This document shows positions 13,533 to 55,524 of a stretch of DNA of 64,000 nt, in pieces. The first letter of the stretch is position 1. Every line of letters starts with the position of its first letter. Location of the stretch: positions 2,432,001 through 2,496,000 of the forward strand of contig CM000154.2 of NCBI GenBank assembly GCA_000004695.1. Direction: 5' to 3'. Both the position numbers and the translations under genes were made by a program. The stretch comes from Dictyostelium discoideum. Lineage: Eukaryota. The notes beneath the pieces were generated by a model. The model made no database searches. It was not told the origin of the DNA and saw nothing but the letters and a program-made list of their open reading frames with translations.

Positions 13533-13585
<53 letters not shown>

Positions 13586-15671: not shown

Positions 15672-15728
<57 letters not shown>

Positions 15729-15857
15729 TATTATTAAATTATTATTATTATAATAATTAATTATATTTTTATTAAAATAATAATTATTTAATAATATTTT
15801 ATTTTTATTTAATTTTAATGATTCTTTGAATATGTTTTTATTTAAACATTTTAACAT
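13521..15857 (-). CDS. Mitochondrial tRNA uridine 5-carboxymethylaminomethyl modification enzyme MnmG/GidA (MTO1 homolog).
   Basis: The 778-aa single exon has an FAD-binding N-terminus ([30 protein letters not shown]) and the conserved GidA core ([12 protein letters not shown]..., [27 protein letters not shown]). It carries an N-rich mitochondrial-type leader and a poly-Q C-terminus. Confidence 0.9.
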
Positions 15858-16282
15858 TTTTTCGTAAATTAATTAAAAAAAAAAAGTAAAAAAAAAAAAA
15901 TCACACTTGTCAGGTGTGGTGAATCGATTTTTCAAAGTATTTATTTTTTTTTTTTTAAATTTTTTTTTTTTTTTTTTTAATTTTTTTTAATTTTTTTTTT
16001 TTTTTTTTTTTTTTTTTCATTTTTAATTTAATATATTACAAATTCCATCTACATCCAAATTAACACATAAAAAAAATATAAAATAATAATAAAAAAAAAA
16101 CAATAATTTTATAAGCAATAAATATTTATTTACATATGTTTTATTATTAATATTATAATTTTTTATTTATATATATATATATTTTTTTTTTTAATGAACC
16201 AAAGTAAATAAAAAAAGTGTATATGACATTTTTTTTTTTTTTTAATAGATATATTAATATATATCAAATAAATAAATAAATA

Positions 16283-16856
16283 ATGTCATCACCATCAAAT
16301 TCATCACCTATTAAAATTGATTCTACAACGACAGCAGCAACAACAACAACACAAGGAAGTGGTAGTACAATTAATATTGAAACAGCAAATAAAAATGAAT
16401 TAATCGAATTTATAAAGAAACAAGCAATTCATATTAAAAAATATGAAAATAAATATTCAACAGTGATTGAAACTTATAAGAAATTAAAGAATGAAAATTT
16501 GGAATTAATTAAAAAGCAACAAAATCAAGAAGAAGAAATTTCATTATCAAAACAAACTTCAAATTCAATCATTGAATCATTACAATCTGAAATCAATAAA
16601 TTATCATCATCTTCAAATACTCTACAAAAAATGAAAGAACAAATTGAAGAGAATCTACAAAATAGATTTCAACATGAGAAATCATTATTTCAAGATGAAA
16701 TTAAATCATTACAATCTCAAAAACAAGATTTACAATTAAAATTACAAAATATTGAACAACAACATCAATTAGAATTACAACAACAACATCAAAAAATTCA
16801 ACAAGAATTTCAACAAGAAATTATAAAACAAAAACAAGATTTTGAAAATTTAATTC

Positions 16857-16906
<50 letters not shown>

Positions 16907-18566
16907 GATTTAAAACAAGAAGATCAACAACCAAAACAATTAAATAAACAATTAAATTATGATAGTGACTATTTAGAAAGTTTACCATTGGAGAAAAAGA
17001 TTAATATAATATTAGAAGAAGAAATAACAGAAGAAGATGAAGAAAAAGAAAATAAGAATAAAGAGGAAAAAAATATAAATAATTTAGTTGAAGCTGAAGA
17101 AGAAGAAGAAATTAATAATAGTGATAGTAATAATAATACAAAAGAATTTTATGAAAAATTTATAAATGAAAAAGAAAAAACAATTGAATTTTTAAATAAA
17201 CAAAAACAAGAGATTGAAGAAATGGTATTGGAATTTAAAGATGAAATTCAAAGTTTAAAGAAATTAAATCAAGATAAAGATATTGAATTGGAACAAGTTA
17301 AAGAGAATCTACAACAGATCGTTGAAAAGAATAATGTAACTAAAACTGAAATCATTAATAATAATGTACAAGCTGAAGAAGAGTTTACAATTCAAATCAA
17401 AAAGTTGGAGAATGAATTAGCTGAAAATAAATCTCTTTTAGAATTAAAGAATGATCAAATTGCAAAATTGAATACATATAGTGATGAGAAAATGGCGAAA
17501 TTAAAATCACTTTTACTTGGTGCTCAAAAACATGTTTCAGAACAAAAGAAACAAATCAATGACAAGTCCAATGAAATCTCACAATTGAAAGAAACAATTG
17601 AAAATTTAGATAAGAATCAATCAGAAAATGAATTACTTTCAAATGAATATGATGAAATGAAAAATAATTATGAATATAATTCTCAAAGAATTAAATTATT
17701 AGAATCTCAACTATCACAAACAAATCAATCATTATTATCAATTCAAAATGAATATAATGATTATAAAATTAAAGTTCATTATGCAATTAAAAAGAATCAA
17801 TTTGATGATGATGATAATGATGATGATGATGATGACGACGATGATAATAATAATAATAATAACAAAAATGATAAAGATAAAATAAATCAAGATGATAATA
17901 ATCAAAAAGAAAATGATAATTTAGAAAATAATAATGATCAAAATGATGAAAATTTAAATAATTTAGAAAATGACAATCTAAAAAATATCAACAATAATCA
18001 AATCATTGAAAATTTAAAGAATACATTTGAAATTGAAAAGAATCAGTTAAATGAAACCATTCAATCATTATCAGATCAAGAGAAACTATATAAAAAAGAG
18101 ATTTCAAAGATTACTGATCAATATGAAGATTCAAAAGATAATATAATAATTTTAAATTCAAAGATTCAAAATTTAAATCAAATTATTGAAACTTTAAAAG
18201 ATGATTTAAGTCAACAACAACAACAGCAACAACAACAAATAACACAAACAAAACAAGATCAACCAATAGAAAATAATAATAAAATTAATAATAACAATAA
18301 TAACGATAGTGATAATAATAATAATAATGATAATAATAATAATAAGGTTGAACAAATTAAATTAACATATGAAAATGAAATTAAATTAAAAGAAGAGAAA
18401 TATATTGAATTACAATCACAAATGAATTTATTTAAAAAAACAAATAATTCTGTTTTGAGAGAAAAAGATAAACAATTACAAGATCAAAAGAAACAAATCG
18501 AATCTTTAATAGAGGATTTGGAATCATTTAAAAATAGTAATAATAATAATAATAGTAATATTAACA

Positions 18567-18604
<38 letters not shown>

Positions 18605-19363
18605 TTAACAACAACCACAACTACAACTACAACATCTACCATTAGTCCAGTTACTAGTGAAAACTATAATAAATTATCACCATATTCATTATCAAATGAA
18701 AATGAAGTTTTTAATAATGATAGTGATAATGAAAAAATTGATGATATTAATAAATTTAATCTTGAAAATTTAATTAATTTTAATTCAACAAATAATTCAA
18801 TTTATAATAATAATAGTAATAATAATAATAATAGTAATAATAATAATAATAACAATAATAGTGGTAATAGATATATAAATAAAATTAGAAAACCAATTAA
18901 TTATATGGGTAATAATACAGATAATAATAATAATAATGATTTAAATGGTATAATTGAAATGGTGAAATCTGATAAAACTCCAACAGAAGTTGAGAATCTT
19001 TTACAAAATTTTGCAAGTAAACAAGCTGGAAGGGATGAGGAATTAAGAAAATGTCAAATTGAAATCAATAAATTAAAATACCTATTAGAAGAAAGTGAAT
19101 CAAATGAACAAAGACATCTTGAACAAGAGAAAGTATTAAAAGAAGAAATTAGAAGTTTAGAAAGAAACGTTAACTTGGGTAACCTTCAACCAATGTATTT
19201 AAAGAATATATTATTAAAATTCATCGAAACTGATGATAGTGATTCTTTATTACCCGTATTAACAACTGTTATGCAATTCACTCCTGATGAAGTTAAACGT
19301 GCCACTGACGCTGTGAAAGCTAGGAAAAAAGATAATAATTATTGGAAAGTTAAATTATTTTAA
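16283..19363 (+). CDS. GRIP-domain coiled-coil golgin (1026 aa).
   Basis: Long heptad-rich, poly-Q/N/D body. The C-terminus matches the GRIP domain: ...LQPMYLKNILLKFIETDDSDSLLPVLTTVMQFTPDEVK... with an invariant Tyr. Confidence 0.8.
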
Positions 19364-29602: not shown

Positions 29603-30705
29603 TTAATTAATTAATGGATCTTTTTCATCTTCTGGATTCAAATCTTTAACACGTTGTTTCATTTTAGCGGAAGGAATATTAACCCAACGATTTTTAATAT
29701 CGACAAGGATGATAATAATTTGAACAACAAAACATAAACAAGCGAGACCGAAAAAGACAAGTTCAGCAACGTGATAAGCATTTGGTGATGCGTATTTTGG
29801 TATTGGAATACATGAACTTGAGCCTGCTGTGGAGTTTGTATCTATATGATGTGAAGTGGAGCTTAATAAAGTATGATTTGATGGTGATGGTGATGGTGAT
29901 GAATGATGATCAGAAGAGGTTGCTGGTTCACATGATCCACTTGAATCTGAGGAGACTGGATTGGTGTTAAAGTGAGCAATGATTGCATTAATGATTAAAC
30001 CAAATGAGGCAACGGCTGCATTTTGACAAGCAAAAGCCAAACCATAGGCAGAACCTAAACTCTTGCTTGGTACTAAACATGGAATGGTAACCCAAATAGA
30101 AGCGGCCATAAAGGCATAACTTCCACCTAAAAATATGGCACCAGCCCAAACGTTGATATCACTGAATGCGAACAAACCATGAGCAACAACCAAGAGGGCT
30201 GATGCAAATGTGGTGAATGCAATATTGTGACCAGTACGATCAACGATGAAACCAATGATTGGTGATGAAACTGCTGCATAATAAGGTACTGATGCGATCG
30301 ATGTTGCTAAATCTGCTGAAATACCATATTTACTTTGGAAGAAATCTGCACAAATTGAAACGAAAACAAATAATGGTACATAAAATAATACGACTGATAA
30401 ATTGATTAACCAAAGAGTACCTGGGAAATGGAAAACATCTTTAAATGATCTTAAGATATCCATAAATGATGATGCTGTTGTTGTGTTTGGATCATCTTTA
30501 TCTTTTTTACCTCTAATAACATCAAGTACAACTAAAATAATACATGATGCAAATGAAATACCACAAACAATTGCACCAACCCAAATTGCTGCTGGTACTC
30601 TACTAACTTCATTATTTTCAATTTTTGGTGAGATTTGGAAATTAATTGCACTACCCTAAATTATTATTATTATTATTAAAAATGAATAAAATTAAATTAG
30701 TAAAT

Positions 30706-30784
<79 letters not shown>

Positions 30785-31352
30785 GATATTTACAATTCTT
30801 GAAAATGCAAGAGTAATTGCAAATGCAAAATTAATATCACCTCTACCTTTGAACCAAGTTGCACAAAAAGTTGATTGAGCAACACTAAGTGATTCACCAC
30901 CAAGACTATATAATTAAAAAAAAAAAATTTGTTAATGATTCCCTTTTCTCTATCTCTTCAATAATTGAATAATTAAGCACAATAACTAAAAACCAATACA
31001 AATATATAGATATATATATAAAATACATACCCAAAAATGGTTCTACCAACTAAAGCTAACCAAAATAATTTTAAGTTTGATGAAACTGAGAAAATGATTT
31101 GACCGGCCATAACTAAACAACAAAAAATGATTGCACCTTTTTTAAGACCAAAAACGTTATCAATAAAATAACCACCAAAAAATACAATAATCATATTTGG
31201 AAAACTGTATACTGAATATAAAAGATTCCATTTAACATTATCTACTTTATATAACTAAAAATAAAATGAAAAAAAAAAATTATTATTATTATTTTTATTA
31301 TTATTAGAAAAAAAAAAAAAAAAAAAAATGTTATTATTTATTATTTAATTTT

Positions 31353-31419
<67 letters not shown>

Positions 31420-31570
31420 TAATAGTTATAATACATACTGTTTCAATACCTGTTTGTAAAGCAGCTGGAATATCATAAATATAATAGCTACCTAATGTGA
31501 TTAAACAAATAAAAAGCAAACCGAAATAACGGAATGCATGTCCGAAAAAACTTGTCTTGTTTTCACTCAT
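29603..31570 (-). CDS. Major facilitator superfamily transporter (MFSD1-like). complement(join(29603..30607,30794..30905,31031..31254,31439..31570)). The 30607 boundary is uncertain.
   Basis: Exon 1 ends ...QTGIET at a GTATGT donor. Exon 2 reads LYKVDNVKWNLLYSVYSFPNMIIVFFGGYFIDNVFGLKKG...GRTIFG (phase 2), exon 3 LGGESLSVAQSTFCATWFKGRGDINFAFAITLAFSRI (GTAAAT donor), and exon 4 ...VGVPAAIWVGAIVCGISF... through 12 TM-like segments to the stop. Intron 1 contains an ~85-nt poly(A) and intron 3 an (AAT)n. The last acceptor was chosen as the only in-frame phase-0 AG, at 30609-30608. Confidence 0.65.
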
Positions 31571-32365
31571 TTTATTTGTATATATAAATATTGTTATATA
31601 TATAAATAATTAATGTGTGTGTAGGGAAAAAAAAAAAAAAAAAATGAAAATTAAAAAAAAAAAAAAATAGATAAAAAAATTGAGACCCCTGGGATGATAA
31701 AAATTTCGTTTTTTTTTATTATTTTAAAAATTCAAAAAATTAATTTGAAAAAAAAAAAATAAAATAATTAAAATTAAATTTGATGAGAAATATCTAAAAA
31801 CCTTTCAAATATTCCAAAAGAGGACAGGATTGTAGTTAAATGATTTTAGAATAATCGATGCGACCTCATTCTTTTTTTATAATTTTAAAAGAATTAAATA
31901 ATTATTAGTTTAATAACCACTTATAGTCTTTTTTTCAAATTTTTCTACATATGGGCATAAAAATAAAAATAAAAAAAAAAATTAAAAAAAATAAAAAAAA
32001 ATATTAACTAAAAAAATAAAAATAAAAAAACAAAATTTAATTTGTTGTGACATTTTAAAATTTTTTTTTTTTTTTTTCACTAAAATTATTTCACAAAATT
32101 TAATTAAATCAGTAAATGAAAAAAAAAGTATAAATAAAAATATGTATTTTAAGTTTTTAGACACCAATAATTTCAATTTTCAAACACCATACATAAAAAT
32201 AGGATGCAAAGTTTAAATAATAATAATAATAATAACCAAAAAAAAAAGGAAAAACATAAAAAAAAAAAAAAGAATTTGAAATTATAATTTTTAAATTATT
32301 TCTTAAACCAAAAAAAAAAAAGAAAAAAAAAACATATTTTCACAAAAAAAAAAAAAAAAAAACAA

Positions 32366-32398
<33 letters not shown>

Positions 32399-32401
32399 TT
32401 T

Positions 32402-32434
<33 letters not shown>

Positions 32435-32467
32435 CATTTTCGTCAATTATAAAAAAAGAATATCAAA

Positions 32468-33096
32468 ATGAGTAAAAATAATAATAATAATAATGGTGGT
32501 GAAAGAATCCAACCAATTGAAAACAATGATAATATTCATATGTATAGTTTACCATCAACACAAATTAATGAAGATAAAGTAAAACCAACTGGAATTATTG
32601 ATGGTTTATTAAATATTAATGTTTCAGAAATACCATGTTTTAAATCATCAATGCTATATGCAGTTGGTGGTGCTATGGGTGTATTAGCAGTAACCTCACT
32701 TATTCCATCTTTAAGAACAAGTAATTATTAATTTTTATTTTCTTTTTTTTTTTATTTTTTTTTTTAATTTCTTACTTACATTTTTTTACCTGAAAATTAC
32801 AGAAAGATTTGGACCAGCAGATTATGGTGTTTGGACATTTTTAGGTATTGCAAGTTTATCTTGGTAAATATATTGATTTATTTTTTTTTTTTTTTTTTCA
32901 ATATCATGATTATATAAAATTTTCTAATAATAATTATAATTATAATAATAATAATTTTTATTTTAGGCCAATTTGTGATTATAACCACAAATTACACAAT
33001 AAAAGGGTTAAATTATTAATGGATGCACAAGTAGCTGAAATGAATAGAAAGATGAGTGAGAAGATTGAAACAGAAAAAGAGGATCAAAAAAAATAA
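32468..33096 (+). CDS. Cytochrome c oxidase assembly factor COX20 homolog. join(32468..32720,32803..32863,32967..33096).
   Basis: The spliced product ...IPCFKSSMLYAVGGAMGVLAVTSLIPSLRTKRFGPADYGVWTFLGIASLSWPICDYNHKLHNKRVKLL... is collinear with human COX20 (NTPCARHSILYGSLGSVVAGFGHFLFTSRIRRSCDVGVGGFILVTLGCWFHCRYNYAKQRIQ). Donors are GTAATT and GTAAAT; phases are 1 and 2. Confidence 0.65.
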
Positions 33097-33169
33097 TATA
33101 ATTTAATAGTTTTTATATTGAAAAAAAAAGAAAAAAAGAAAAAAAGCACAGATGATTTTAAAATATTTT

Positions 33170-33232
33170 ATTATGGCGGATTCAAAATTAATGTGGCGGA
33201 TTCAAAATTAATGTGGCGAATTCAAATATTAA
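33170..33232. repeat. Tandem 20-mer repeat (ATGTGGCGGATTCAAAATTA x ~2.7).
   Basis: Direct repeat 'tggcggattcaaaattaatg tggcggattcaaaattaatg tggcgaattcaaatatta'. It is GC-containing, lies in an intergenic AT desert, and encodes no ORF. Confidence 0.6.
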
Positions 33233-34604
33233 ATACTTGGCTATTTAAATAAATTTTCCCCGAAAAGAAGAAAAAAAAAAAAGAAAGGGAAAGAAAATAA
33301 TTTTGCCCCTTTGGTGTTTTTTTTTGGTTTTTTTTTTTTTTTATTTTTTAAAATTTTAATGTTAATTTTATTTAATTCTATTTTTTTAATTTTATTTTTA
33401 TAAAATATAAATAATTTTTATTTATTTTCATTTTTAATTTTATTTTTAATTTTATTTTTAATTTTATTTTTAATTTTATTTTTAATTTCATTTTAATTCC
33501 AACCATCAAAAATAATTATATTTACAAGGTGGTCCACCTGCCAAGCATCAATTGATATCATTGAACAAATAAAGCTTCATGCCAGTGTTTACATTCAAAT
33601 AAGAAAATTTTAAATAGATCAATCAATTTAGGTGACGGTCATGTGTTGACAACTAATGAATAAAATAATACCCAAAAATTTTTGAAAGTATTAAAATGGC
33701 TCATGGAGCATTGGGTTTATTGAACCATTATAAAATAAAAAGAAAAAAAAGAATAAAAAAACAAAAATAAAATAAAATTTTGAAAAAAAAAATAACTTTC
33801 AGACTAAACGCATTGCATCCAATGAAATCGAAAATAAAAAAAATAAAAAAAATAAAAAATACCACACACCAAAATGATCATGTCAGTTTTTTATTTTTTT
33901 TTTCATTTTATTTTTTTCAAAAATATAATTTTTTTTTTTTTTTTTTTATTTTTTTTTTAAATAGTAATCAAAAAAAAAAAAAAAAGATATTTTCGAAAAA
34001 TTCAACTAATCAAACTTTGATTAAAAAAAAAAAAGTGAAAAAAAAAAAGTGTTTAGAAAAAAAATGAAAAAAAAAATGAAAAAGATCTAGATCAAAATCT
34101 TTTTTTTTTTTTATTTATATTTTTTTTTTGTTATTATTTTTAATTAAAATAAAAAATTAAGAAATAAAATAAAAATTGTAAAATGAATTATTGTTTGAAA
34201 AATTGGAAAAGAATACTCGCTCTCATATTACCTTGTACAATTAATATTAAAAAAAAAAAAATATTTTTAATAAAAAAAAGTTATTTTTAGTTTAAAATTG
34301 ATGAGAACCAAAATCAAACATTTGATATGGAGGATTTTTAACCACGCACTATCAAAAAAAAAAAAAATATCAACCAAAAGGTTAGGTTTTTTGAAAATTT
34401 TTTTTTTTACGAAAAGCATTCAACTGTAACAAAAAAAAAAATGGTTCACATAAAAAAATTTAAAAATATCTAGCCCAACGAGTTGATTGTATTCGAAATG
34501 ATTTGATTGGTTGCATATAATTTAAAAATAAGTTTTTATAAAAAATAAAAAAAAAATTACAAAGTGAATAAAAAAAAAAAAAAATTAAAAAATTAAAAAT
34601 AGCA

Positions 34605-34649
<45 letters not shown>

Positions 34650-35249
34650 ATCAATTAGTTTTTGTGTTGTAAACTTGTGGATGAAGTTGTTTTGAAGAGA
34701 AAGAGATTGTGTGTATTTTCAATATAGATTTTATCAAAATATCAAAAAAAAGTTATCATTATCAAATTTTTTTTTGAAAGTAAGTAAAAATTATTTTTTC
34801 AGCAAACTCAGTTTCAACGAACACTTCTGAAAATGTTGCCCAACATCTCAAAATCAAATATGAAAAACAAATTAGATTTTAGCTATTAACCCAAAACCTT
34901 TTTTTTTTTTTTAACCATTTTCTTTTATTTTTTTTTTATTTATTTTTTTATTTACCTTTTTTTTTCATTTTTTTATTTTTTTTTTTCTATACATTTTATT
35001 TATTCATTTAAAAAAAAAAAAAAAAAAAATAGATCATCACACAAATATATTATTTATATATTTTTTTTTAAATATATATTATATAAATAATTATTTGTAA
35101 TCTATTAATTCTAATTTGTTTTTTATATATATCACATTTTAGAACACACAATCATATTTAAAATTCTTTTTATTATTTATTATTATTAATTTTTGTATAA
35201 TTAAAATCATAAACAAACACACATACACACATAAAATTATTTTCACAAA

Positions 35250-35617
35250 ATGAGTTCTCACAAAACCTCATCAAAGTCCTCATCATCAAATAGCTCAATG
35301 AGTATGATATTGGGATTTTCTAAATCATTAGAGAAAGGTAAAATATTAGACAATTAAATATAAATAATTATTTCAATTAATAATATTAATGTAAACACTT
35401 TTTTTTATTCTTTTTTATTTTAATTTTTTATTTAGGGTCTTTTGGTGTTTTGTATGCTATGATCAAAGGAAACACATTCCCAAGAATATTGACCATCTTA
35501 AGTTTGTTGATAGAGTTTTGTCGTATGTATAAAATAAAAATAACCGCGGGGTTGATGTTATTGATTTTTTTTTTATTTTTATTTTTATTTTTTTTTTTTT
35601 TTGTGATTTCCAAAATA

Positions 35618-35654
<37 letters not shown>

Positions 35655-38600
35655 CCCAAAATTTTTCATTTTCCAAAAGTCACATGCCCACTGACAAATT
35701 TTAATTAATTAACCCCTTAATCTGTTTCTATTTTAACCAATCACAATTTTCCAAAAAAAAATAAACCCAAACCCAAAAAAAAAAAAAAAAAAAAAATAAT
35801 AAAAAATTAATAATAAAATAATAAATAAAAAAATAATAATAAAAAATTTAATAAAAAATTAAATAATAATAATAAATAAAAATAAAATTACAATGAATAG
35901 AATTATCATCTTTTGGTTTTAAACATCAATATCCATGGGGTGGTGATGCTGGATAGTAAGTTTTTAATTTATTGTTATACCAAAATAATTAAATAGCTTT
36001 TTAACAAATTTTTTATTATATTATTATTATAATTATTATTACTTTTAAAAAATTATTAGTTATTTAAAAAAAATTATGTCACCAATTAGTCATCCATCAG
36101 ATGTTATTGGGTATACTGGTTTTACAATCTTTTTTTGGATTGTCATTGGTTTGATGTTATTAGGTTTTTTAAATATTTGGTATGTTGCATATCAATTTTA
36201 TCGTGGTAAAATTGCAAATATTTGGATTATTAGAACTCTTCGTTGGTTTGTTAGTACTACTGTAGCAGTTTTATTTATTCCAATCATTTCCTTACTTTTA
36301 ATTGGTTTGGATTGTGAGTACACAAGTAAAGGTGCTTTTCTTAGAAAGTTTGGTGGTGAAAATATTTATTGTTATAAAGGTGCAAACTTACCAATTGCAA
36401 TTATTTCAATTATTTTTATTATTTTTTTCAGTCAAGTTGGTTTTACATCAAGTGCAACCTATTATGAATATGATCCAAATGTTAAATCAAGATTTGCTAA
36501 ACCACATGCAAGAGTAAGATATTTTCTTTTTATTTTGTTTTATTTTTAAACTTTTTACTAATTTTTATTTTTTATTTTTATTATTAAATTATTTAGTTAG
36601 ATGTTATTATTTTATTAGTAAAACTTATTCTTGCATTATTAAATTCATTAGTTGATTTTTCACCATGGACAACATCAATTGTATTTTTTATTTTATCATT
36701 AGCATTAGTACTTGGATCAATTTTAGTTTTACCATATAATAATCAAAGATTAAATCAAATAAAGAGTGGATTTTATGCAACAGTATTTTGGGTATCATTT
36801 ATGACATTGGTAAATATGGGCATTAATGATGAAACATCACCAGCTACATGTTATGTTACAATTGTTGGTGTATTCTTTGCTTTTCCAGTTGGTTACTTTT
36901 CCAATAGATTATTTTATAAATTTTTATGTTCAAAGATTAACCAATTAAGAATTCCATCAACTTTATCAACTATGGATCTTCATGAAAATAAAGATAAAGA
37001 AAATGATAAATATGAAACTCATACTTCAAGAGTAACATGGGGTAGACAACCAGTAACATTGGGTAGTAAAAGACAAATTATACTTCCATTTTTCGGTAGT
37101 AAATTTGCATTTCCATTCTTTGTTGAAATCATGGCAAGAAAATTATTAAGAGGTAGTAATGAAGGTGTTTCAAGTAGTCCAATTGAATCAATTGAACGTG
37201 CAAATAATCTTTATCAATGTGGTTTACAATATTTCCCAAATTCAGATATATTATGGATGGCATATTGTAACTTTTTATTCACAGTTAGAAAAGATAGACA
37301 TATCGGTTATGCTGCATTAGAAAAACTTAGAAGAATGAATCCTTCTTTCGATGTTCGTTTCTTCATTTATCAACGTGATAAAGAAAGAGAACAAATTATG
37401 GATTCAGATTTACGTGGTCCAGAACATACAGGTAAAATTCAAGATTTCGTCAGTTACATGGAATTTAAAAAACTTTATTATGGTGCTAAAAGACATCATG
37501 TTAAATGTTTAACATATATTAAAAAGTTTTGGGGTTTATTATTACATGAAACAGTTGATCTTCATCGTTTATCAGATTTATCAGGTCGTATTGCAACAAC
37601 TGAAAATAAAGCAAATGAAAGTTATGAACGTTTGTTAGCACTCAATCCAAATTCAGTTAGAGTACTTCGTGATTATTCTCAATTCCTTGAAGAAGTTGTA
37701 AGAGATAAAGAATCATCATATAAATTACAAAAGAAAGCAGAAGCAATCGAAGACATCATGAGTAAAAGTCAAACAACTGATTTTAAAACAATTGATATTA
37801 AAAATTTAGAAGACTCTGATACAGAAGTTGATCAAGTATTAAAACAAGAACCAAATGCAATTCAATTGGCAAAGATTGATGCAGATATTGAAAAATCAGG
37901 ATCAAAATCAGGATCATCAAAATCAAAAGATGATTCATCAGAATCAAGTAGTTCATCAAAAGGTAGAAGTAATAAATATAAGGAATTCCAACAAAGTAAT
38001 GCAATTAACAAACTTTCATGGTTAATGATTGGTACAACTGCATGTTGTGTTATTTATTTAATTATTGTTTTGGTTGTATTCAGAGGATTGGCAGTTAAAC
38101 ACACCAATGCATATCAAGGTATTTTATCAATTACAGATTGTGCAACTGAAGCAGTTTCAATTGCAATCAATTTAAATACTATGCAAGCATATGCATTAGG
38201 TGCTGGCTTAAGTTTCCCAATTGAGGCAGCTGTTGAACAAATTAATATTTTAAAAGCTCAAAACGATAGAAGTTTAATTATAATGAAAAATATCCATGAT
38301 GCAATTTATTGGGGTGAAGGTAATCCAGCTGCATATGTTGGTGATAATTTATCCAAATTAAAAGATAGAAATGGTATTGATGTTTTCGATATTGGTTCAA
38401 CCATTTTCACATTTGATCAATTCAATCGTTCAAACACCGTTTTAGAAAATAAAAGAATGATTCAAATTTATAGTGAACCATCAGTCAATATGTCAATTTT
38501 GGTTGCACCAAAAGGGACCAATACAACTACTCATTATTCTCAAACTTATAACGCTTGGAAAGCTGGCAATGCTTTCATTGAAAGTGCAATCATAGCCAAT

Positions 38601-40115
38601 AAATTATCAGTTTATGATTTCATAAATGGTTCCACAAATCCAGATTTGAAGTTTGTAATTTTAAATGCACCAAGCAATATTCCAGATATTTATTTAAAAA
38701 TACAACAAGCTTATATAGATTCTTTGGTTGACAATATTATGAACACTTTGAATACGATCCTTTACGTTTGGTTGGCCATTTTTGGTTTTCTTGTTGTTAT
38801 TGGTGCTGTTTTATTCCGTCCAATTGTTAGAAAGATTTCTCGTGAAAAGATTCGTACACTTGTATTATTTTCATTGGCACCAAGAGATGTGGTAATTAAA
38901 CTTTCAACAAAGAAAATTAAAATGGTTAGTTTAGATAGTGGTAGTGAACGTGATAATCTTTTCGATACAACTGACGATGATGATGGACGTGATGATCACG
39001 AACATCTTCACCATGATAGTGATAATACCCCCACAGGAGAAAGAAAAAAGAACGACGATATTGTATCAATTAATGTTACTGATCCAACTGGTGCAACTCT
39101 CTCTTTATCTCCATCCAATCCAAGAAAACATTCTCAATCCTCAGATAATGAAGCAGAAAACCGTTCATCCAACAAAAGCAACAATCAATTTGGTGATCGT
39201 CGTCCATTAATGGATTCAACTGGTGTTTTAGCATCGACAACTTTAAATAATAGAAAATCCAATGAAGAAAAACCAAAATCAGAAGAAGAAAGCAGAGATG
39301 AATATAATAAGAAATATGGTTGGGATGGAAAGACTAAAAGAAATTTAAATAAGAAATCACTCAGATCAGTATTGAGACGTCTTCATTGGTCTTATGTTTT
39401 AGCAATCTTTTTATTATTTGGTTTTATTACAATGGGTATTTGGGTATCATTTACAGTTGTATTTAATAACTCACAATCTGGCTATACCTTGGGTAAAAGT
39501 AGTACAAGAGCATTAAACAGTCGTATCATTAATTTCTATGTAGCTGAACTATATACATTTGATAATGACGCAAACGAACAAAAAGCAATGGACGCTGTAA
39601 CCCATTTACAAGAGAACCATCAATCATTACCATACCTTGAAGAGGTTAGACCATTGATGGAAGGCTCCTATGGTTGTTGGATGCTTAATAAAAGTGATTG
39701 TCTTACAAGAGATTCAATTTATTATTCTGATGTCAGTGTTGGTCTTGACTGGTTAATCGATCAATATGCAAAACACTGTGTATCTCTATTCAACACTGAT
39801 TCTGCAACTCTTGGAACAAGTCCAGAGTTGGCCTGGTTACAAGCAATTGGCTCAAACGTAATGTTCCAAGGCTTGGATACTGCAACTTTTACTTATTTCG
39901 AATACTACCTCTCACTACAAGATTGGGCCACAAAAGTTTTGACTTCAGTTTTAGCTGTTAGTTGTGTTTTATTAGTAATTATATATCTTGTATTATTTAG
40001 ACCATTTATGAATCATCTTAGGATTCAACATATTCATACTTTGGCCTTATTACGTTTAGCTCCTGACGATATTAGATTCATGGAAGTTAGTGATAAAGTT
40101 ATTGACGAAGATTAA
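35250..40115 (+). CDS. Large multipass membrane protein with a cytosolic TPR/HAT-like module, paralog A. Core exons join(36076..36513,36597..40115); probable 5' exons 35250..35337, 35436..35522, 35901..35955, joined via acceptor 36060.
   Basis: The core has a 4-TM N-terminus, then a GTAAGA donor at 36514 and acceptor AG 36595-36596 that splices in frame to LDVIILLVKLILALLNSLVDFSPW... It continues through a TPR-like block (LYQCGLQYFPNSDILWMAYCNFLFTV...), a TM, a ~550-aa luminal/extracellular region and C-terminal TMs. Three short upstream exons are conserved in paralog B while the intervening introns are not. The third ends ...GGDAG at 'ta|GTAAGT', and an in-frame 5-codon linker (YLKKI) reaches the core ATG. 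Confidence 0.6.
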
Positions 40116-40300
40116 AAAAAATTAAAATGAAAAAGAAAAGGATTTTTTTGTGTATATTAAAAAAAAAAGAAAAAAAAAAAAAAGAAAAAGAAAAAAAAAA
40201 ACTACAACTTTGTAAAGTAAAAAAAAAAAAAAAAACCTTTAATAAAAATCTAAAACATTTCTATTTATTTAATATTTTTTGTTGAGGTTGATAATTTGAG

Positions 40301-40332
<32 letters not shown>

Positions 40333-40596
40333 CAACCCCTATTTTTACAAATCTGATTTTTAAATTCCTCTTCGGAAATTTAAAAACATTTTTTTTTTTT
40401 TTAGTTGGAGTTAAAAATCTTTTTGATTTTCATGAAATTAAAAAAAAAAAACTGTTTAAAACTTAAACAGTTTCAATTTCATGAAATATTTACTATCAAA
40501 AAATTTTATTTTTAAATTATTAATCATGTTGCGCAATAGTGACGGATATGTCATTGAAAAAAAAAATTTTTAACAAAAATAAGTATTTTGGGTTTA

Positions 40597-40634
<38 letters not shown>

Positions 40635-41125
40635 AAAATAAAAATTTAATCAGTAAATTTTAAAAATATTAAAATTGTCACCATTAAAATGCCAAAAGGC
40701 CAAAGTTTTTCAGCTAATTAATTACCATGTACAAAAAAAAAAAAAATGTTTACACCCAATCAGTCAAAATAAAATTTCTCATATTTCACTTACCGATTCG
40801 AAAACAGTTATTTTAAAAACCATGACAAAAAAAAAAAATTTCAAAAAAAAAAAATTAAAAAAAAACTGTAGATATTTTTTTGATGCCCAACCAAATCTCA
40901 TTCTCAACTTATCTATAAAAAACCACTATCGTCTTTAATGTTTTATTTTTTTTTTTATTTTATTTTTAATTTTTTCTTTTTTTCTTTTTTTTTTTTTTTT
41001 AAAAAAAAATATACCTATAAATTTCTTTTTTTTAATTTTTTTTATTTTTAACAAATCAAAACTATATTTTACCTTTGACACGGTTCTTATATATAATATA
41101 TAATATTCTACTCATTGTTGGGTTT

Positions 41126-41186
<61 letters not shown>

Positions 41187-41230
41187 ATTTGATTAGGAGA
41201 TAATATCTCTTTTCAAAAAAAAAGAAAAAA

Positions 41231-41347
41231 ATGTCATCAACTAAATCAGGTTCCTCAAAATACTCATCTGGAAGTTCCATTAGTTTAATAATGGGTTTTT
41301 CCAGATCATTAGAAAAAGGTAATAATTAGTTTTTAAGAGGGAAGTTC

Positions 41348-41403
<56 letters not shown>

Positions 41404-44400
41404 AAATTACTAAAACCAAAAAAATATTTATTAAAAAAAAAAAAAAAATACAGGATCATTTGGTGTTTTGTATGCAATGATCAAAGGAAATACATTCCCA
41501 AGAATATTAACTATCTTAAGTATGCTAATTGAGTTTTGCCGTATGTATAAATATAATTTTAATTTTTTTTTTTTTTTCTTTTTCACTTTTTTTTTAGTTT
41601 TCAATTTTTTTTTTTTTTTTTCAATGTTAGAGTTTTAATGAATAAAATTATTTAACTCTTTTAAATTTTATATCAATGAAATAGAATTATCATCATTTGG
41701 TTTTAAACATCAATATCCATGGGGTGGAGATGCTGGATAGTAAGTATTAATTTTTTTTTTATTATTATTTTAAAAAGAAAAATATTAATACTAACATTGT
41801 ATTAATTTTAAAAAGTTATTTAAAAAGAATTATGTCACCAGTAAGCCATCCATCAGATGTATTTGGTTACTTGGGATTTACAATTTTATTTTGGATTGCT
41901 GTTGGTTTATTGATTTTGGGTTTTTTAAATATTTGGTATGTTGCATATCAATTTTATCGTGGTAAAATTGCAAATATTTGGATTATTAGAACTCTTCGTT
42001 GGTTTGTAAGTTTCTCAGTGGCTGTATTATTTATTCCAATCATTTCCTTACTTTTAATTGGTTTGGATTGTGAAGGATCAAGTGAAGGTACCATCTTAAG
42101 AAAGTTTGACAATGAAACCATTCAATGCTTTAGAGGTGCAAATTTACCAATTGCCGTAATTTCAATTATTTTAATTGTAGTTTTCAGTATTGTTGCCTTT
42201 ACATCTAGTGCAACCTATTATGAATATGATACAAATGTTAAATCAAGATTTTCAAAACCACATGCAAGAGTAAGAAATATTATTATTATTATTATTATTT
42301 CTTTTTTAAATAATTTTATTAATTTTTATATATTTTTTTTTTTTTTTATAAAAAATATTTTTTAGTTTGATGTAACAGTTTTATTTGCAAAATTTGTGTT
42401 TGCATTTTTCAATTCATTAGTCGATTTTGTACCATGGTTAACATCAATAACATTTTTTGTTTTTATGGTGATATTAACTTTTGGATCAATTATTGTTTTA
42501 CCATATAATAATCAAAGATTAAATCAAGTTAGAAGTGGATTCTATACAGTTGTTCTTTGGGTATCATTTATGACATTGGTAACTATGGGTATTAATGATG
42601 AAACATCACCAGCTACATGTTATATTACAATTGTTGGTGTATTCTTTGCTTTTCCAATTGGATTTTTCTCAAATATGTTTTATTTCAAATGGTTATCATC
42701 AAAAGTTTCCGATATTCAAATTTTAAATCAAAGTCCAAGTATGGATCTTAAAGATGCCAATAAAAAAGGTAAACGTAATAGTGTTGAAAAAGAATCATCA
42801 CCAACATCAAAAGTAACATGGGGTAAACAACCAATTACATTGGGTAGTAAAAGACAAATCATTTTCCCATTCTTTAAAAAGAAGTTTGTAATGTCATTCT
42901 TTGTTGAAATCATGGCAAGATCAATATTAAATAATAACAATGAAGGTGTTTCAAGTAGTTCAAATGAGTCAATTGAACGTGCAAATAATCTTTATCAATG
43001 TGGTCTTCAATATTTCCCAAATTCAGATTTATTATGGATGGCATATTGTAACTTTTTATTCACAGTTAGAAAAGATAGACATATTGGTTATGCTGCATTA
43101 GAAAAACTTAGAAGAATGAAACCATCATTCGATGTTCGTTTCTTCATTTATCAACGTGATAAAGAAAGAGAACAAATTATGGATTCAGATTTACGTGGTC
43201 CAGAACATACAGGTAAAATTCAAGATTTTGTCAGTTACATGGAATTTAAAAAACTTTATTATGGTGCTAAAAGACATCATGTTAAATGTTTAAATTATAT
43301 TAAAAGATTTTGGGGTCATTTATTACATGAAACAGTTGATCTTCATCGTTTATCAGATTTATCAGGTCGTATTGCAACAACTGAAAATAAAGCAAATGAA
43401 AGTTATGAACGTTTGTTAGCACTCAATCCAAATTCAGTTAGAGTACTTCGTGATTATTCTCAATTCCTTGAAGAAGTTGTAAAAGATAAAGAATCATCAT
43501 ATAAATTACAAAAGAAAGCAGAAGCAATCGAAGATATCATGAGTAAAAGTCAAACAACTGATTTTAAAATTAGTGATATTAAAGCAATTGATTCCGATGA
43601 GGATGATATTGAAAAAACTCTTCAAGAACCAACAGCAATTCAATTGGCAAAGATTGATGCAGATATTGAAAAATCAGGATCAAAATCAGGATCATCAAAA
43701 TCAAAAGATGATTCATCAGAATCAAGTAGTTCATCAAAAGGTAGAAGAGGCAAATATAAGGAATTCCAACAAAGTAATGCAATTAACAAACTTTCATGGT
43801 TAATGATTGGTACAACATGTTGTTGTATTATATTTTTAATTGTTGTATTGGTTGTATTCAGAGGATTAGAAGTTAAACATACCAATGCATATCAAGGTAT
43901 CATTTCAATCACAGATTGTGCCAATGAAGCAGTTCAAATGGGTATGCATTTAAATGCAATGCAAGCATATGCTTTGGTTGCTGGTGTTGGTAATAATACA
44001 GTTGAAGCATCATTAATTGAAATTGCTAGAAGAAGAGCTTTGGTTAAAAGAGGCATTATCATTATGAAGAATATTCATGATGCAATTTATTGGGGTGAAG
44101 GTAATCCAGTTAGTTATGTTGGTGATAATTTATCCCAATTGAAAGCAAGAGATGGTTATGATATTTTCGATATTGGTTCAGTAATTTTCACATTTGATCA
44201 ATTCAATCGTTCAAGTACTTTATTGGATAATAAACAAATGATTGAACTTTACAGTCAGCCATCAGTCAATATGTCGGTTTTAGTTGCACCACCAGGTTCT
44301 AATACAACTTCACTCTATACTCAAACTTATAACGCTTGGAAAGCTGGTAATGCTTTCATTGAAAGTGCAATGCTTGCTAGTGATGTTACATTTGATGAGC

Positions 44401-44820
44401 TTAGATACTCTGTCAACCAAAATCCAAATTTCAAATTTGTAACAATTAACGCCCCAGTAATTATGCCAGATATTTATAATAAGGTTCAAACAGCTTATAT
44501 CGATTCATTGGTTTCCGATATCACTGGTACATTAGATGCAATTCTCTATACTTGGTGTGGTATTTTCGCTGTACTCTTTTTAATTTGTGCCGTTTTATTC
44601 CGTCCAATTGTTAGAAAGATTTCTCGTGAAAAGATTCGTACACTTGTATTATTTTCATTGGCACCAAAAGATGTTGTTGTTAAACTTTCAACAAAGAAAA
44701 TTAAAATGGTTAGTTTAGATAGTGGTAGTGAACGTGATAATCTTTTCGATACAACAGATGATGATGGACGTGATGATCATCTTGGAGAAGATGACAACAA
44801 TATTCAAACCCCAGTTGGTG

Positions 44821-44854
<34 letters not shown>

Positions 44855-45932
44855 TAACAATAATAATGGTTCAATATCATCAAACGTTACAAAATCAGAT
44901 GGAGAAATTGGTTCAGATGGTGTTCGTAGTAGTAGTGGTAGTAATGTTTTAAATACATCATCACCATATAGAGATAGACGTCCATTAATGGATTCAACTA
45001 GTGTTTTGGCATCAACAGCAACATTAAATAATAGAAATGTAAGATTACAAGCTAAAGATGAAGAAATAACTAATGGTGGTGGTGAAAGAAAAGGTAGTGA
45101 TGCAACAAGAACAGCTCTTTCAGAGGATAAAAAATATGGTTGGGATGGAAAGAGTAAAAGAAATTTAAATAAGAAATCACTTAAATCAATTTTAGGTCGT
45201 CTTCATTGGAGTTATATCCTTGCTACATTCTTATTGTTTGGTTTCATCACTATGGGCATTTGGGTAACATTCACTGTCGTATTTAATAATTCTCAATCTG
45301 GTTATACATTGGGTAAAAGTTGTTCAAGATCATTGAATAGTCGTGTCATCAATTATTATGTTGCCGAATTGTATACCTATAGTCAATATGTAAGTACTCA
45401 AAATATGGTTGATGCAATCACAGAATTACAAAGCAGTCATCAATCATTGCCATACCTTGAAGAGGTTAGACCATTGATGGAAGGTTCATACGGTTGTTGG
45501 GCACTTAATAAAAGTACTTGTCTTCCACCATCCTCTATGTACTATGAAGAAGTTAATAGTGGATTGGATAGAGTTGTTGACAGTTTGGCAAAGAAAGCAA
45601 TTAATTTGGCTTATACCGATCAAGCTGCCTTATTAGATAGTCCAGATTTACAATGGTTCTTAGCACTCATCGATTATATTTTCATTGGTCTTGACACTGC
45701 AACCTTCACTTATTTCGACTATTTCTTAGAAAAACAAGAATGGGCAAATACAGTTTTAACCGCTATTCTATCTGTTAGTTGTGTTATTCTATTGGTAGTT
45801 CATGTAGTATTATTTAGACCATTTATGAATCATCTTAGAATTCAACATATTCATACTTTAGCCTTATTACGTTTAGCTCCTGATGATATTAGATATATGG
45901 AAGTTAGTGATAAAGTTATTGATGAAGATTAA
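41231..45932 (+). CDS. Large multipass membrane protein, paralog B (tandem duplicate of 35250..40115). Core join(41832..42269,42366..45932); probable 5' exons 41231..41318, 41454..41540, 41685..41739, joined via acceptor 41816.
   Basis: Same architecture and splice positions as paralog A: GTAAGA donor after ...KPHAR, and acceptor tttAG|TTTGATGTAACAGTT giving FDVTVLFAKFVFAFFNSLVDFVPW. The upstream mini-exons encode MSSTKSGSSKYSSGSSISLIMGFSRSLEKG / SFGVLYAMIKGNTFPRILTILSMLIEFC / QLSSFGFKHQYPWGGDAG, almost identical to copy A. Confidence 0.6.
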
Positions 45933-46123
45933 AAAAAAAAAAAAAAAAATAATATATTAAAAAAAAAAAAAAAAAATGTATATATAAAATTTTAATAAAA
46001 AAAAAAAAACAAAATAAAAATGTATAGAATCTTTTTGTAAAAATTAATTATATTATTTATTTTAATTACTTTTTTTTATTTGTTTTTTTTATTTTATTTT
46101 TTATTTTTTATTTTTTTTTATCT

Positions 46124-47050
46124 TTAATAATTAAAAAATAAAAATGAAGGGTCACAATAAAAAACTAAACAACCATTTGGATACGAGGGTATTGAAGTTA
46201 AACTATAACCCTTTGGACAACTTGGGGCAATTGAAGAACTACATTTTTCTGGTGATATTGGAGCGCATTCAAAGAAAATATAACAATGATTAAAACTTCT
46301 GACATATGTTGCAATTAAACCAGATACACATCTAATTTCTTGAATTTTCTTTGGACAGTTATTTGAATTTGTTAAACTAATAAATAAATTATCAATATTA
46401 TATTCATATTTTGGTTTCCAATCTACATTTTTTATAATTTCATAATTTTCATCATAATATTCAGAGTTTGTTTCATTATTTGTTATGGTTACTGAATTTA
46501 CAGTAAATACGGAATTTCCAGTATTAATTAAATATTCCATCCAATTTGTTTGAATATTTTTAACATTTTTTGGATAATCTTGATATACAAGTGTTTTAAA
46601 TCTATTTTTTTCATCATTTTCATTTAATTGAGGTACTAATAAATTATGAGGATTACCCAAAGTATAAAATTGGGTATCTTTTGTTAAATTGAAAGTTTTA
46701 CCAGGCATTGGCATTAATCTATAGATATTGTGAGCTTCTGCAGTATCAACATCGTTTTGATAATCTCTATTTAAAATACCTCTAAAAACTATATGATAAG
46801 GTGGAGCATTTCTAATTTTATTTTCATTTACAACACCAATATCATCTTGTTGATTAATTTCTGAAACATAAATTTCCATCTCTTCTTTACCTGTATTTAA
46901 TTCCTTTACAAAATAACCACCACATCCAGGTTTTTCATAATTATCACATCTTCTTGTATCAGTTCTTGCTGCATAGTATTTAAAATCATCATTACATTTA
47001 ATTTTAAATATTAAATTAAATAAAATTAAAATAATAAATTTTATTTTCAT
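46124..47050 (-). CDS. Secreted Cys-containing hypothetical protein (308 aa).
   Basis: Single exon starting at ATG 47050. N-terminal signal peptide (MKIKFIILILFNLIFKIKC), multiple Cys, no recognizable domain. Confidence 0.55.
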   Translation of the reverse strand: MKIKFIILILFNLIFKIKCNDDFKYYAARTDTRRCDNYEKPGCGGYFVKELNTGKEEMEIYVSEINQQDDIGVVNENKIRNAPPYHIVFRGILNRDYQNDVDTAEAHNIYRLMPMPGKTFNLTKDTQFYTLGNPHNLLVPQLNENDEKNRFKTLVYQDYPKNVKNIQTNWMEYLINTGNSVFTVNSVTITNNETNSEYYDENYEIIKNVDWKPKYEYNIDNLFISLTNSNNCPKKIQEIRCVSGLIATYVRSFNHCYIFFECAPISPEKCSSSIAPSCPKGYSLTSIPSYPNGCLVFYCDPSFLFFNY

Positions 47051-47409
47051 CTTTTCAAATCATTTGAAAATTTAAAAAAATAATAATTTAAAAAAATTGG
47101 ATATAAAGACAATAAAAAAAAAAAAATAAAATAATAAAAAAATAAAATAAAATAACAATTATTTATTTCAAATAAAATCAACCATCTATGAAAGATTTAT
47201 ATATCATTTTTTTTTTCCAAAATGTTGTATAATAAATTACCCCCACGAACACACACTTTTCATACCCAATCTTTTTTTTTTTTTTTTTTTCTAATTATTT
47301 AATTATTTATTTATTTAATTATTTAATTATTAATTATTTATTTTGTAGATTTTTTTTTTTTTTTTTTTTTTTTTAATTATTTAATTTTTTAATTATTTAA
47401 TTTTTTAAT

Positions 47410-53942: not shown

Positions 53943-55524
53943 ATGACTCAATTTATTGATAGAAATCAATCATATAAATTAAGAAACTCTACATTATTTC
54001 CACACGATATAACAATTGAAGATTGTCGTGAAGGTAAGCATTTTTTTTATTTTTTTTTATTTTTATTATTTGAAAACCTCAACATATTAATATTTTTCTT
54101 TTTTTTTTTTCTTTTATAGCCATAAAAGATGCAGCTGGATTCAGAGAAACAACAAAAAATGGATTAATTTGTTTTAATTATGATTTTTGTTTTAAAGATT
54201 CATTCCCAAATCCAGATATTGAACCAGATGATAAAAAAGCATTCCTTTATAAAGTAAGAAGAGAATGTAGAGGTTTAATTTTCAATGAAGCAACAAGTGA
54301 AATTGTTTGTAGAAAATTACATAAATTCTTTAACATAAATGAACAACAAGAAACAAAAGAAGTAAGTTTTATTTTATTTATTTTATTTATTTAAATAATA
54401 ATATTAATTTATTTTTTTTTTTTTTATTTTTTATATTTTTTATAATTTTTTTTTAAAAAAAAAAGGAATTAATTAAATTAGATGAGAATTTCATTGTATT
54501 AGAAAAATTAGATGGTTCATTAATTGCACCAATTTTAATTAATGGTAAAGCAGCATGGGGATCAAAGAGTGGTATTACAGATTTAACAATTAAAGTTGAA
54601 AAACATATTCAATTAAAATTAAAAGATAATAATATTAGATATGATGATTTCGCATTAGAATGGATGTTAAAAGGTTATACACCATTATTTGAATGGTGTT
54701 CAGAATCAAATCAAATCGTATTATATTATGCAATTGATAATTTAAATTTAATAGCCATGAGAAATATGAAAACTGGTGAATATTTAACTCATGATGAGAT
54801 GGTAAAGATTACAGCACCATTCAATGTACCAGTGGTAACATGTGTTGATTTAAAATCACATACACATTTCTCAAAGCTTTATAGTGAATTAAATGGTGCT
54901 GATAAGAGCATCACCACCACCTCTGAAGAATTTATAAATACAGGCGCATCAAAATTATTGAAAATTGTATTAGGCTTAGAGAATTGTGAAGGTTATATAT
55001 TAAAATTCGATTCAGGTAAGACCTATAAGATGAAGAGTAATTGGTATTTCGAGTACCATTCAATTGCACCAAATATTAAATATGTTTTAGAAAAGGATGT
55101 TTTCTATTTAATTTTAAATGATGGTTTAGGTGGTATCGATGATATTATTGCAAAGATCACTGCTTCAGGACCTGTACCACAAAGATATTACCAAATTCAA
55201 GAGTTTGGTAAAGAATTATTACAAAAACTTGAAGATTTATCTATTAGAGTCATTCAATTCATTAAAGAATCAAAATCACAAGGAAAATTAAGAAAACATA
55301 TCTCCTCTGATAATTCGGTTTCAAATGCTTTCAAAAACTTTGTTTTTAGATTTTATGATTCAGTTGAAGCAAATGATAAAGTTACAAAACATATTGGTGA
55401 TGTTTCAAAACATATAATGGAAAAATTAAAACTTCTTTGCACTAATTCTTCTAAATTAGAAGAATGTAGAATTATTCTTGGTGGTATTAAATTTACTGAA
55501 GATAAGCCAAAATTATCTGATTAA
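53943..55524 (+). CDS. ATP-dependent RNA ligase, T4 Rnl-like nucleotidyltransferase. join(53943..54033,54120..54361,54466..55524).
   Basis: GTAAGC donor at 54034 and acceptor AG 54118-54119. GTAAGT donor at 54362 and acceptor AG 54464-54465. Exon 3 begins ELIKLDENFIVLEKLDGSLIAPIL, i.e. covalent-nucleotidyltransferase motif I (K-x-D-G-S-L, as in T4 Rnl1 KEDGSL). RGLIF and ILKFDSGKTYKMK further downstream are compatible with motifs III-V. The first track 'M' (53931) is TTG; the real ATG is at 53943. Confidence 0.6.

Follow-up and report, generated by a model that had tools for sequence, protein, structure and literature searches.

Interlocus gene conversion is known to homogenise parts of paralogous genes. 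As far as the accessible text of two sources goes, long-lasting converted gene pairs of mammals show domain-restricted concerted evolution by this route (PMC2720389), and islands of divergence persist under conversion in the GOT1 paralogs (PMC3728101). Here we describe a comparable case in the social amoeba Dictyostelium discoideum. The window analysed, a 64,000-nucleotide (nt) stretch of the forward strand (GCA_000004695.1, CM000154.2, 2,432,001-2,496,000), holds two head-to-tail genes of the TmcB/TmcC ("tiny macrocysts") family, here called g1 and g2. They are very probably ancient tandem paralogs in which a TPR-coding tract of ~0.6 kb has been recurrently homogenised by interlocus gene conversion.

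The locus resembles these cases to the extent that the cited texts describe them: paralogs exceed orthologs in similarity within a delimited tract, trees of tract and flanks are incongruent, the tract is the most constrained coding segment, and a divergence island persists inside it. It departs from the same accounts in involving three paralogs (g1, g2 and tmcC, one of them ~40 genes away), in running in parallel in three species, in being polymorphic between strains, and in lying in an extremely AT-rich genome without a GC-biased signature. No earlier report of this g1/g2/tmcC conversion was found in the literature searched. Family and process are both known, and the case is solid but textbook; its merit is that it documents domain-restricted concerted evolution cleanly, in several species and with polymorphism between strains, under such extreme base composition.

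On the protein side, the accessible part of one source cites tmcB as a regulator of macrocyst formation and of cyclic AMP (cAMP) signalling in sexual development (PMC12750705). g1 and g2 resemble TmcB/TmcC in identity (68-79%), in size (~1400 amino acids), in the order of transmembrane (TM), TPR and ectodomain parts and in a near-identical TPR block, and tmcC is itself their partner in conversion. They differ in their records: g1 is only a hypothetical protein, and no D. discoideum record of g2 turned up in the collection searched. The role of tmcB in macrocyst formation and the cAMP pathway reportedly goes back to Muramoto et al. 2005 (Mech Dev 122:733). Also among the closest known systems are bacterial TM-flanked periplasmic four-helix-bundle sensors (NarX/NarQ, NasR NIT, McpN, PcaY, PilJ, Tar/Tsr).

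Gene models and family assignment

g1 and g2 are five-exon genes in tandem. Reading the three forward frames together with GT..AG boundaries gave the following models.

35250-40115, + strand: g1, TmcB/TmcC-family gene DDB_G0289205; 5 exons, 1400 amino acids, without internal stop
35250-35337, 35436-35522, 35901-35955, 36060-36513, 36597-40115, + strand: exons of g1, separated by GT..AG introns
41231-45932, + strand: g2, tandem paralog, intact; 5 exons, 1416 amino acids, without internal stop
41231-41318, 41454-41540, 41685-41739, 41816-42269, 42366-45932, + strand: exons of g2, separated by GT..AG introns
40116-41230, no strand: g1-g2 intergenic spacer, rich in A/T homopolymers, without homology to the region upstream of g1

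Each model runs from an ATG (35250 in g1, 41231 in g2) to a stop codon that ends at 40115 and 45932, respectively, and intron phases are the same in the two genes. An initial annotation of this DNA had drawn two head-to-tail paralogs with a common exon-intron structure, and its coordinates are exact; its estimate of ~1300 amino acids per protein fell short of the spliced lengths. By tblastn, g1 and g2 are the only TmcB-family copies within the window, whose G+C content of ~20% and homopolymer-rich spacers are typical of Dictyostelium. Homopolymers of 30-56 nt, all A or all T, lie at 41129-41185, 41349-41400, 40301-40330 and 35614-35652, in the spacer that separates g1 from g2 and, in both genes, in introns 1-2; g2 intron 1 is essentially a poly(A) run.

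The two genes are unequally represented in databases. The g1 model matches XP_636336.1 / DDB_G0289205 / Q54HV3 of D. discoideum AX4 at every residue, and the protein is identical in AX4 and a second D. discoideum assembly; its annotation goes no further than hypothetical protein. For g2, the protein collection searched returned no D. discoideum protein record, from AX4 or from newer strain assemblies. The g2 protein is 95% identical to D. citrinum ACTFIU_002855, with which it has its exon structure in common, and g2 orthologs are annotated in D. citrinum, D. cf. discoideum, D. dimigraforme and D. firmibasis. In D. discoideum, g2 is either un-annotated, mis-modelled, or the named gene tmcB under a record that was not returned; neither the homolog search nor the cluster look-ups brought up a record named TmcB. 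The ratio of nonsynonymous to synonymous divergence (dN/dS) is 0.08 between g1 and its D. citrinum ortholog outside the tract, and 0.10 between g2 and its ortholog. Judged by their sequences, both genes are under purifying selection, intact and functional.

The initial annotation had recognised no family, and a Pfam profile supplies one. Residues 496-618 of g1 match PF25474 TPR_TmcB at 155.8 bits, where the cut-off is 27 (E = 6.5e-46). A homolog search returned 31 dictyostelid proteins, among them TmcC (Tiny macrocysts protein C, Q5FBC4), and PF25474 is present in 31/31. g1 and g2 are collinear over their full length with TmcC and the 30 other dictyostelid homologs; g2 aligns to TmcC at 68% identity across 99% of its length, and the last exons of g1 and tmcC are 79% identical. 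This sequence evidence places g1 and g2 in the TmcB/TmcC family. Of the block first described as TPR/HAT-like, the TPR half stands, with TPR_TmcB above threshold. The HAT half does not: HAT-repeat profiles stay below cut-off in g1 (HAT_PRP39_N, 20.2 bits vs 27.7; HAT_Syf1, 15.3 vs 27), and the label "HAT repeat-containing" carried by TmcC is annotation only.

Conversion in the TPR-coding tract

Similarity between g1 and g2 is very uneven along their length. Homology of the two units is confined to ~35250-40176 vs 41231-45976, with 73% amino-acid and 79% nucleotide identity overall and 74-96% identity from exon to exon. For introns 1 and 3 and the 5' flank, alignment scores do not exceed those of shuffled sequence, and for introns 2 and 4 and the 3' flank they do so by a small margin only, in keeping with the initial description of the introns as clearly diverged. 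In the last exon, 746/3474 aligned nucleotides differ. The longest perfect run there is 163 nt (37539-37701 = 43320-43482), compared with a maximum of 63 nt in 2000 permutations of the differences. Where the two proteins have the same amino acid, they also use the same codon in 167/172 cases in the tract vs 487/619 outside (Fisher p = 2e-10). Uniform divergence, named beforehand as the outcome that would speak against conversion, is not what the pairwise comparison gives; divergence is strongly non-uniform.

The near-identity resolves into distinct segments. Informative sites in quartets are given below as species:orthology, three values per segment.

36777-36866 (g2 42546-42635), + strand: short candidate tract, TM7 region; 90% identity; quartets 7:4, 5:3, 4:2; suggestive only
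37161-37499 (g2 42942-43280), + strand: tract A1, first half of the cytosolic TPR block; 96.8% identity; quartets 11:4, 9:3, 17:3; species clustering
37500-37571 (g2 43281-43352), + strand: paralog-specific island, 72 nt; 90% identity; quartets 0:6, 1:5, 0:5, that is, orthology
37572-37751 (g2 43353-43532), + strand: tract A2, second half of the TPR_TmcB domain; 179/180 identical (99.4%); quartets 10:0, 4:0, 12:0
42942-43532, + strand: the same tract (A1, island and A2) in g2, with a 314-nt stretch identical to D. discoideum tmcC
37752-37880 (g2 43533-43658), + strand: diverged acidic linker or spacer, 129 nt; 77% identity; quartets 2:22, 2:18, 3:19, that is, orthology
37881-38063 (g2 43659-43841), + strand: tract B, Ser-rich linker and start of TM9; 94% identity; 113-nt perfect run; partly homogenised
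39990-40112 (g2 45807-45929), + strand: C-terminal tail, second LFRP..LAP motif and ..MEVSDKVIDED; 117/123 identical; quartets 1:0, 2:0, 5:0

The single near-identical block first proposed at 37190-37990 / 42960-43770 is real and beyond chance; it is not continuous, being made up of A1, the 90% island, A2, the 77% spacer and tract B. Near-identity of the last ~120 nt, also noticed at the outset, stands at 95%. Tract A2 overlaps most of the 163-nt perfect run, whose start lies in the island. The island encodes T..K..L in g1 and tmcC and N..R..H in g2. Quartets are mixed in tract B (7:6, 4:3, 8:4), and its tree does not resolve; the few informative sites of the C-terminal tail all favour species grouping and are too few to be sure of conversion. 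Exon 4 gave no clear conversion signal, its conserved middle part having too few informative sites.

Inside the tract, genes group by species; outside it, they group by orthology. The protein sequence of the TPR block is nearly invariant across the whole family, so protein identity alone proves nothing about conversion. The decisive comparison is a codon alignment of 11 last exons (g1, g2, tmcC and relatives), with loci taken from the D. citrinum, D. firmibasis and D. purpureum genomes and D. discoideum tmcC DNA from an assembly other than AX4. In sliding windows over codon columns ~216-400, paralogs within a genome differ by 0-3% and orthologs by 5-8%. Quartet patterns flip from ~0:20-38 outside the tract (e.g. 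0:38:0) to 5:0:0, 7:0:0 and 10:0:0 inside. For trees and for synonymous divergence (dS, by Nei-Gojobori), the tract was taken as 37161-37751 / 42942-43532. Its neighbour-joining tree recovers species clades at 84-87% bootstrap for D. discoideum, 98-100% for D. citrinum and 90-100% for D. firmibasis, with orthology clades at 0%, and third positions of the tract alone give the same topology (species clades 86-98%). Outside the tract, orthology clades receive 97-100% and species clades 0%.

Divergence at synonymous sites follows the same pattern. Between paralogs of one genome, tract dS is 0.061, 0.040 and 0.020, compared with 0.16-0.26 between orthologs at the same codons and 0.70 between paralogs outside the tract. 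Because orthologs diverge more than paralogs in these very codons, a mutational cold spot or synonymous constraint is excluded. Over 552 nt of the tract, 5-17 nt separate paralogs of one genome, compared with 26-31 between orthologs of D. discoideum and D. citrinum and 17-27 between those of D. discoideum and D. firmibasis. The narrowest margin is that of g2, where D. discoideum and D. firmibasis differ at 17 nt vs 14-16 nt between D. discoideum paralogs. Within genomes, the longest identical runs measure 143-314 nt and all lie in the tract; between orthologs, no run exceeds 83 nt. The initial proposal of recurrent gene conversion between tandem paralogs is borne out by trees that sort the tract by species and its flanks by orthology, by dS of 0.02-0.06 vs 0.16-0.26, and by an event that is polymorphic between strains.

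Recency, recurrence and partners

Comparison of two D. citrinum strains catches conversion in progress. Of the 80 differences between the tmcC last exons of strains 1 and 2, 14 fall within one 150-nt window at the island. In strain 2, only 2/600 nt distinguish the tmcC tract from the g2 tract in that genome, and the tmcC island is of the g2 type, N..R..H; in strain 1, tmcC keeps T..K..L. The alignment indicates that a g2-to-tmcC conversion is still polymorphic within D. citrinum, which argues that conversion is recent and ongoing.

Conversion has also recurred, with tmcC as a partner. In D. discoideum the three genes form a mosaic of identical stretches, 314 nt between g2 and tmcC, 182 between g1 and tmcC and 163 between g1 and g2, each in a different sub-segment. 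By our alignments, at least ~5 separate conversion events are implied, tmcC is the third participant, and the process is independent in at least three species (D. discoideum, D. citrinum, D. firmibasis). Over most of their length the genes have been diverging freely from a time before these species split, with paralog dS of ~0.7 and randomised introns.

Two further D. discoideum paralogs, L007 and DDB_G0276733 (chromosome 2), lie 44-64/552 nt from g1, g2 and tmcC and are not homogenised. L007 (GCA_054859355.1, ACTFIW_007840) is a fourth TmcB-family paralog on chromosome 5. Relative to g1 it has a 1-nt insertion in the TPR tract, at 3302-3303; its long open reading frame (ORF) starts afresh partway through the TPR block, and the annotated 1419-amino-acid product must skip the insertion site. 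The insertion may reflect a pseudogene, an error in sequencing or an additional intron.

Alternative explanations

Purifying selection alone, whether on the protein, on synonymous sites through codon usage or mRNA structure, or mimicked by a locally low mutation rate, would require no exchange of DNA. The TPR block is the most conserved protein segment of the family, with a consensus almost invariant across dictyostelids. In the tract, D. discoideum and D. purpureum are separated by a dN of 0.06-0.07, compared with 0.28 elsewhere, and ortholog dS is somewhat lower in the tract, at 0.23-0.26 vs 0.31-0.39 outside. Selection leaves tree topology unchanged, however, and the tract returns species clades with 84-100% bootstrap. 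Its paralogs have species-specific, even strain-specific, synonymous substitutions in common, and ortholog dS is 3-9 times within-genome paralog dS at the same codons. A family assignment explaining the block by purifying selection alone had been raised in advance as an argument against conversion; the family is now known, yet the tract clusters by species, also at third positions. We consider selection without exchange extremely unlikely. A single exchange, either one unequal crossover or one old conversion leaving a chimeric gene, would explain the mosaic if only the two window sequences were considered. It does not account for independent homogenisation in D. discoideum, D. citrinum and D. 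firmibasis, for the strain difference in D. citrinum, or for 314-, 182- and 163-nt runs in different sub-segments of the D. discoideum genes; unchanged copy number and flanks argue further against unequal crossover. One non-recurrent event is thus very unlikely. Assembly error is a natural concern where near-identical tracts of 0.2-0.6 kb lie 5.8 kb apart and short-read assemblers can homogenise them, by collapsing or mixing paralog reads. Yet six independent assemblies, representing four species and in five cases with the genes on Mb-scale contigs, all show this pattern; paralog-specific sites are kept at the island inside the tract, and separate D. discoideum assemblies agree on the g1 protein. 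The probability of such an artefact is next to nil.

Several observations weigh against recurrent conversion or limit its reach. Informative sites in tract B, the C-terminal tail and the TM7 segment are too scarce to tell conversion apart from simple conservation. The 72-nt island retains the orthology pattern inside the tract, so homogenisation is incomplete and either selection or patchy events are needed. G+C content at third codon positions is not raised in the tract (0.11-0.12 vs 0.18 outside, in D. discoideum g1 and g2), so the locus lacks the GC bias with which conversion is often associated. In D. purpureum, the trees do not assign the gene pair to g1 and g2, its two copies grouping with each other at 59-100% bootstrap, and only a lower bound can be set on the age of the duplication. 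Foldseek searches of both half-protein models against the PDB returned no significant match.

Proposed mechanism and consequences

Recurrent conversion could shape its own boundaries. The comparisons above show non-reciprocal homogenisation, recent and recurrent among three paralogs and confined to the TPR-coding block, where one copy is overwritten from another by homologous recombination. Very strong purifying selection on the protein would retain long runs of matching DNA (143-314 nt within a genome), and such runs would allow homologous strand invasion. At the edges, where identity drops sharply in variable linkers (71-77%), extension of the heteroduplex would be limited. With matching runs permitting invasion and diverged flanks stopping extension, we infer that the tract would be self-sustaining and domain-shaped. 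The island is either a junction between separate events or mildly protected by selection; it was replaced in one D. citrinum strain and so is not inviolable.

Conversion might also be maintained or tolerated because it keeps the cytosolic TPR module interchangeable, for binding a common partner or for hetero-oligomerisation, while the ectodomains diversify for ligands. We regard this as rather unlikely. If true, it would give a protist receptor family a "constant region / variable region" design, in which the T/N-K/R-L/H island is a usually protected mark of paralog identity.

Homogenisation has practical consequences for work on these genes. Probes, primers, guide RNAs and short reads from the TPR block cannot distinguish g1, g2 and tmcC, and a knock-in construct whose homology arms fall in the tract risks recombining with the wrong paralog. 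Whole-gene trees or dS would misdate the duplication. The g1/g2/tmcC tract could also serve as a natural assay for rates of ectopic recombination in social amoebae.

Array history

Gene order in related species indicates that g1 and g2 were once part of a three-gene tandem array with tmcC. The D. citrinum order is tmcC - PLAC8 - g1 - g2 in tandem, and tmcC, g1 and g2 also stand in tandem in D. firmibasis; tmcC is directly upstream of g1 in both, with PLAC8 adjoining in D. citrinum. D. purpureum has a tandem pair. In D. discoideum, tmcC and its PLAC8 neighbour lie ~40 genes away from g1 and g2, and the nearest upstream neighbour of g1 is an MFS-transporter gene (29606-30655, minus strand). Downstream synteny is kept, with DUF6748 at 46127-47059 and an RNA ligase at 54457-55521. 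The synteny break shows at window positions 30700-35250 on comparison with loci L002 (6923-10000) and L006 (6001-11075). A tRNA scan for rearrangement or retroelement landmarks found none. The relocated D. discoideum tmcC still has its 314-nt run identical to g2.

The triplication predates the species compared. Orthologs pair clearly by protein identity (g1 90-94%, g2 89-95%, tmcC 87-92%), which places it before the split of D. discoideum, D. citrinum and D. firmibasis. The pairing of the D. purpureum copies with each other fits either an independent duplication or wider conversion. In these copies (L004, 5173-5367 vs 11132-11326), the last exon opens with 195 nt of 100% identity, which encode TM5-6, a region that is 23% diverged in D. 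discoideum; conversion tracts in D. purpureum are therefore differently placed.

Protein architecture

g1 and g2 encode multi-spanning proteins with a layout that departs from the first description. Topology was derived from hydropathy and from two AlphaFold2 models covering amino acids 1-662 and 690-1400 (mean predicted local distance difference test, pLDDT, 75 and 74), built on 22-23-sequence alignments. Hydropathy gives ~8 + 4 TM segments. The predicted N-terminal part has eight TM helices with a small Cys-containing beta-hairpin loop, followed by a disordered linker; the initial annotation had counted four. A cytosolic TPR block with helices at 402-622 and a Ser-rich linker are predicted next. 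The C-terminal half is modelled as two TM - helical-bundle ectodomain - TM modules joined by a disordered cytosolic linker of ~130 amino acids. Ectodomain 1 would span ~220 amino acids (residues ~726-945) with five N-glycosylation sequons, and ectodomain 2 ~160 (residues ~1181-1340) with two. Ectodomain-coding sequence is diverged between g1 and g2, for instance at 38150-38750 vs 43930-44540. What was first taken for one extracellular segment of ~550 amino acids thus reads instead as ectodomain 1, a TM helix, a cytosolic conserved motif and disordered linker, a second TM helix, ectodomain 2 and a final TM helix.

The two modules contain an internal repeat, consisting of a TM helix and an LFRP..LAP motif (BLASTP E = 6e-7). 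The juxtamembrane motif, LFRP(I/F)..(K/H)I...I.TL.L..LAP.D, comes after the final TM helix in both ectodomain modules (38757-38936 and 39990-40112) and is nearly invariant across dictyostelids. It is a candidate functional or trafficking signal.

The predicted architecture suggests a receptor. In the models, the ectodomains resemble sensor-like, TM-flanked bundles that may be of the four-helix type; no Pfam match to the bacterial four-helix-bundle (4HB) sensor families 4HB_MCP, NIT or PilJ was found at E <= 1. An exhaustive HMMER search recovered 840 remote relatives, of which the few inspected carry TM segments and TPR_TmcB, in three followed by cytosolic PAS domains. These unnamed eukaryotic proteins of 1.5-3 thousand amino acids, known from transcriptomes and metagenomes, have an N-terminal TM part with TPR_TmcB at the same position (residues ~400-640), and differ in that one to five cytosolic PAS domains replace the two TM-ectodomain-TM modules of g1 and g2. 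One such relative comes from a EukProt transcriptome. A homolog search with the PAS-containing relative P0042 returned only itself and bacterial PAS proteins. The combination of TM, TPR_TmcB and PAS domains again indicates signalling. The g1 and g2 proteins are most likely receptor-like, as inferred from the models, with an 8-TM core, a TPR scaffold and two putative four-helix-bundle ectodomains, and by analogy with tmcB they may modulate cAMP signalling in sexual development. The corrected architecture applies to an uncharacterised family that may include sexual-development receptors.

Other observations in the window

Two neighbouring genes are unrelated to the conversion. One, at 13524-15872 on the minus strand, encodes a homolog of the MnmG/GidA tRNA-modification enzyme (E = 6.5e-154); the other, at 16280-19363 on the plus strand, encodes a 1027-amino-acid GRIP-domain coiled-coil (golgin-like) protein. 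An ORF segment at 724-2040 on the plus strand has 40% G+C, ~2x the window average, and matches flavoprotein monooxygenases of the FAD_binding_3 / Trp_halogenase type. Its composition is unusual for Dictyostelium, and it is possibly a highly expressed or horizontally acquired gene.

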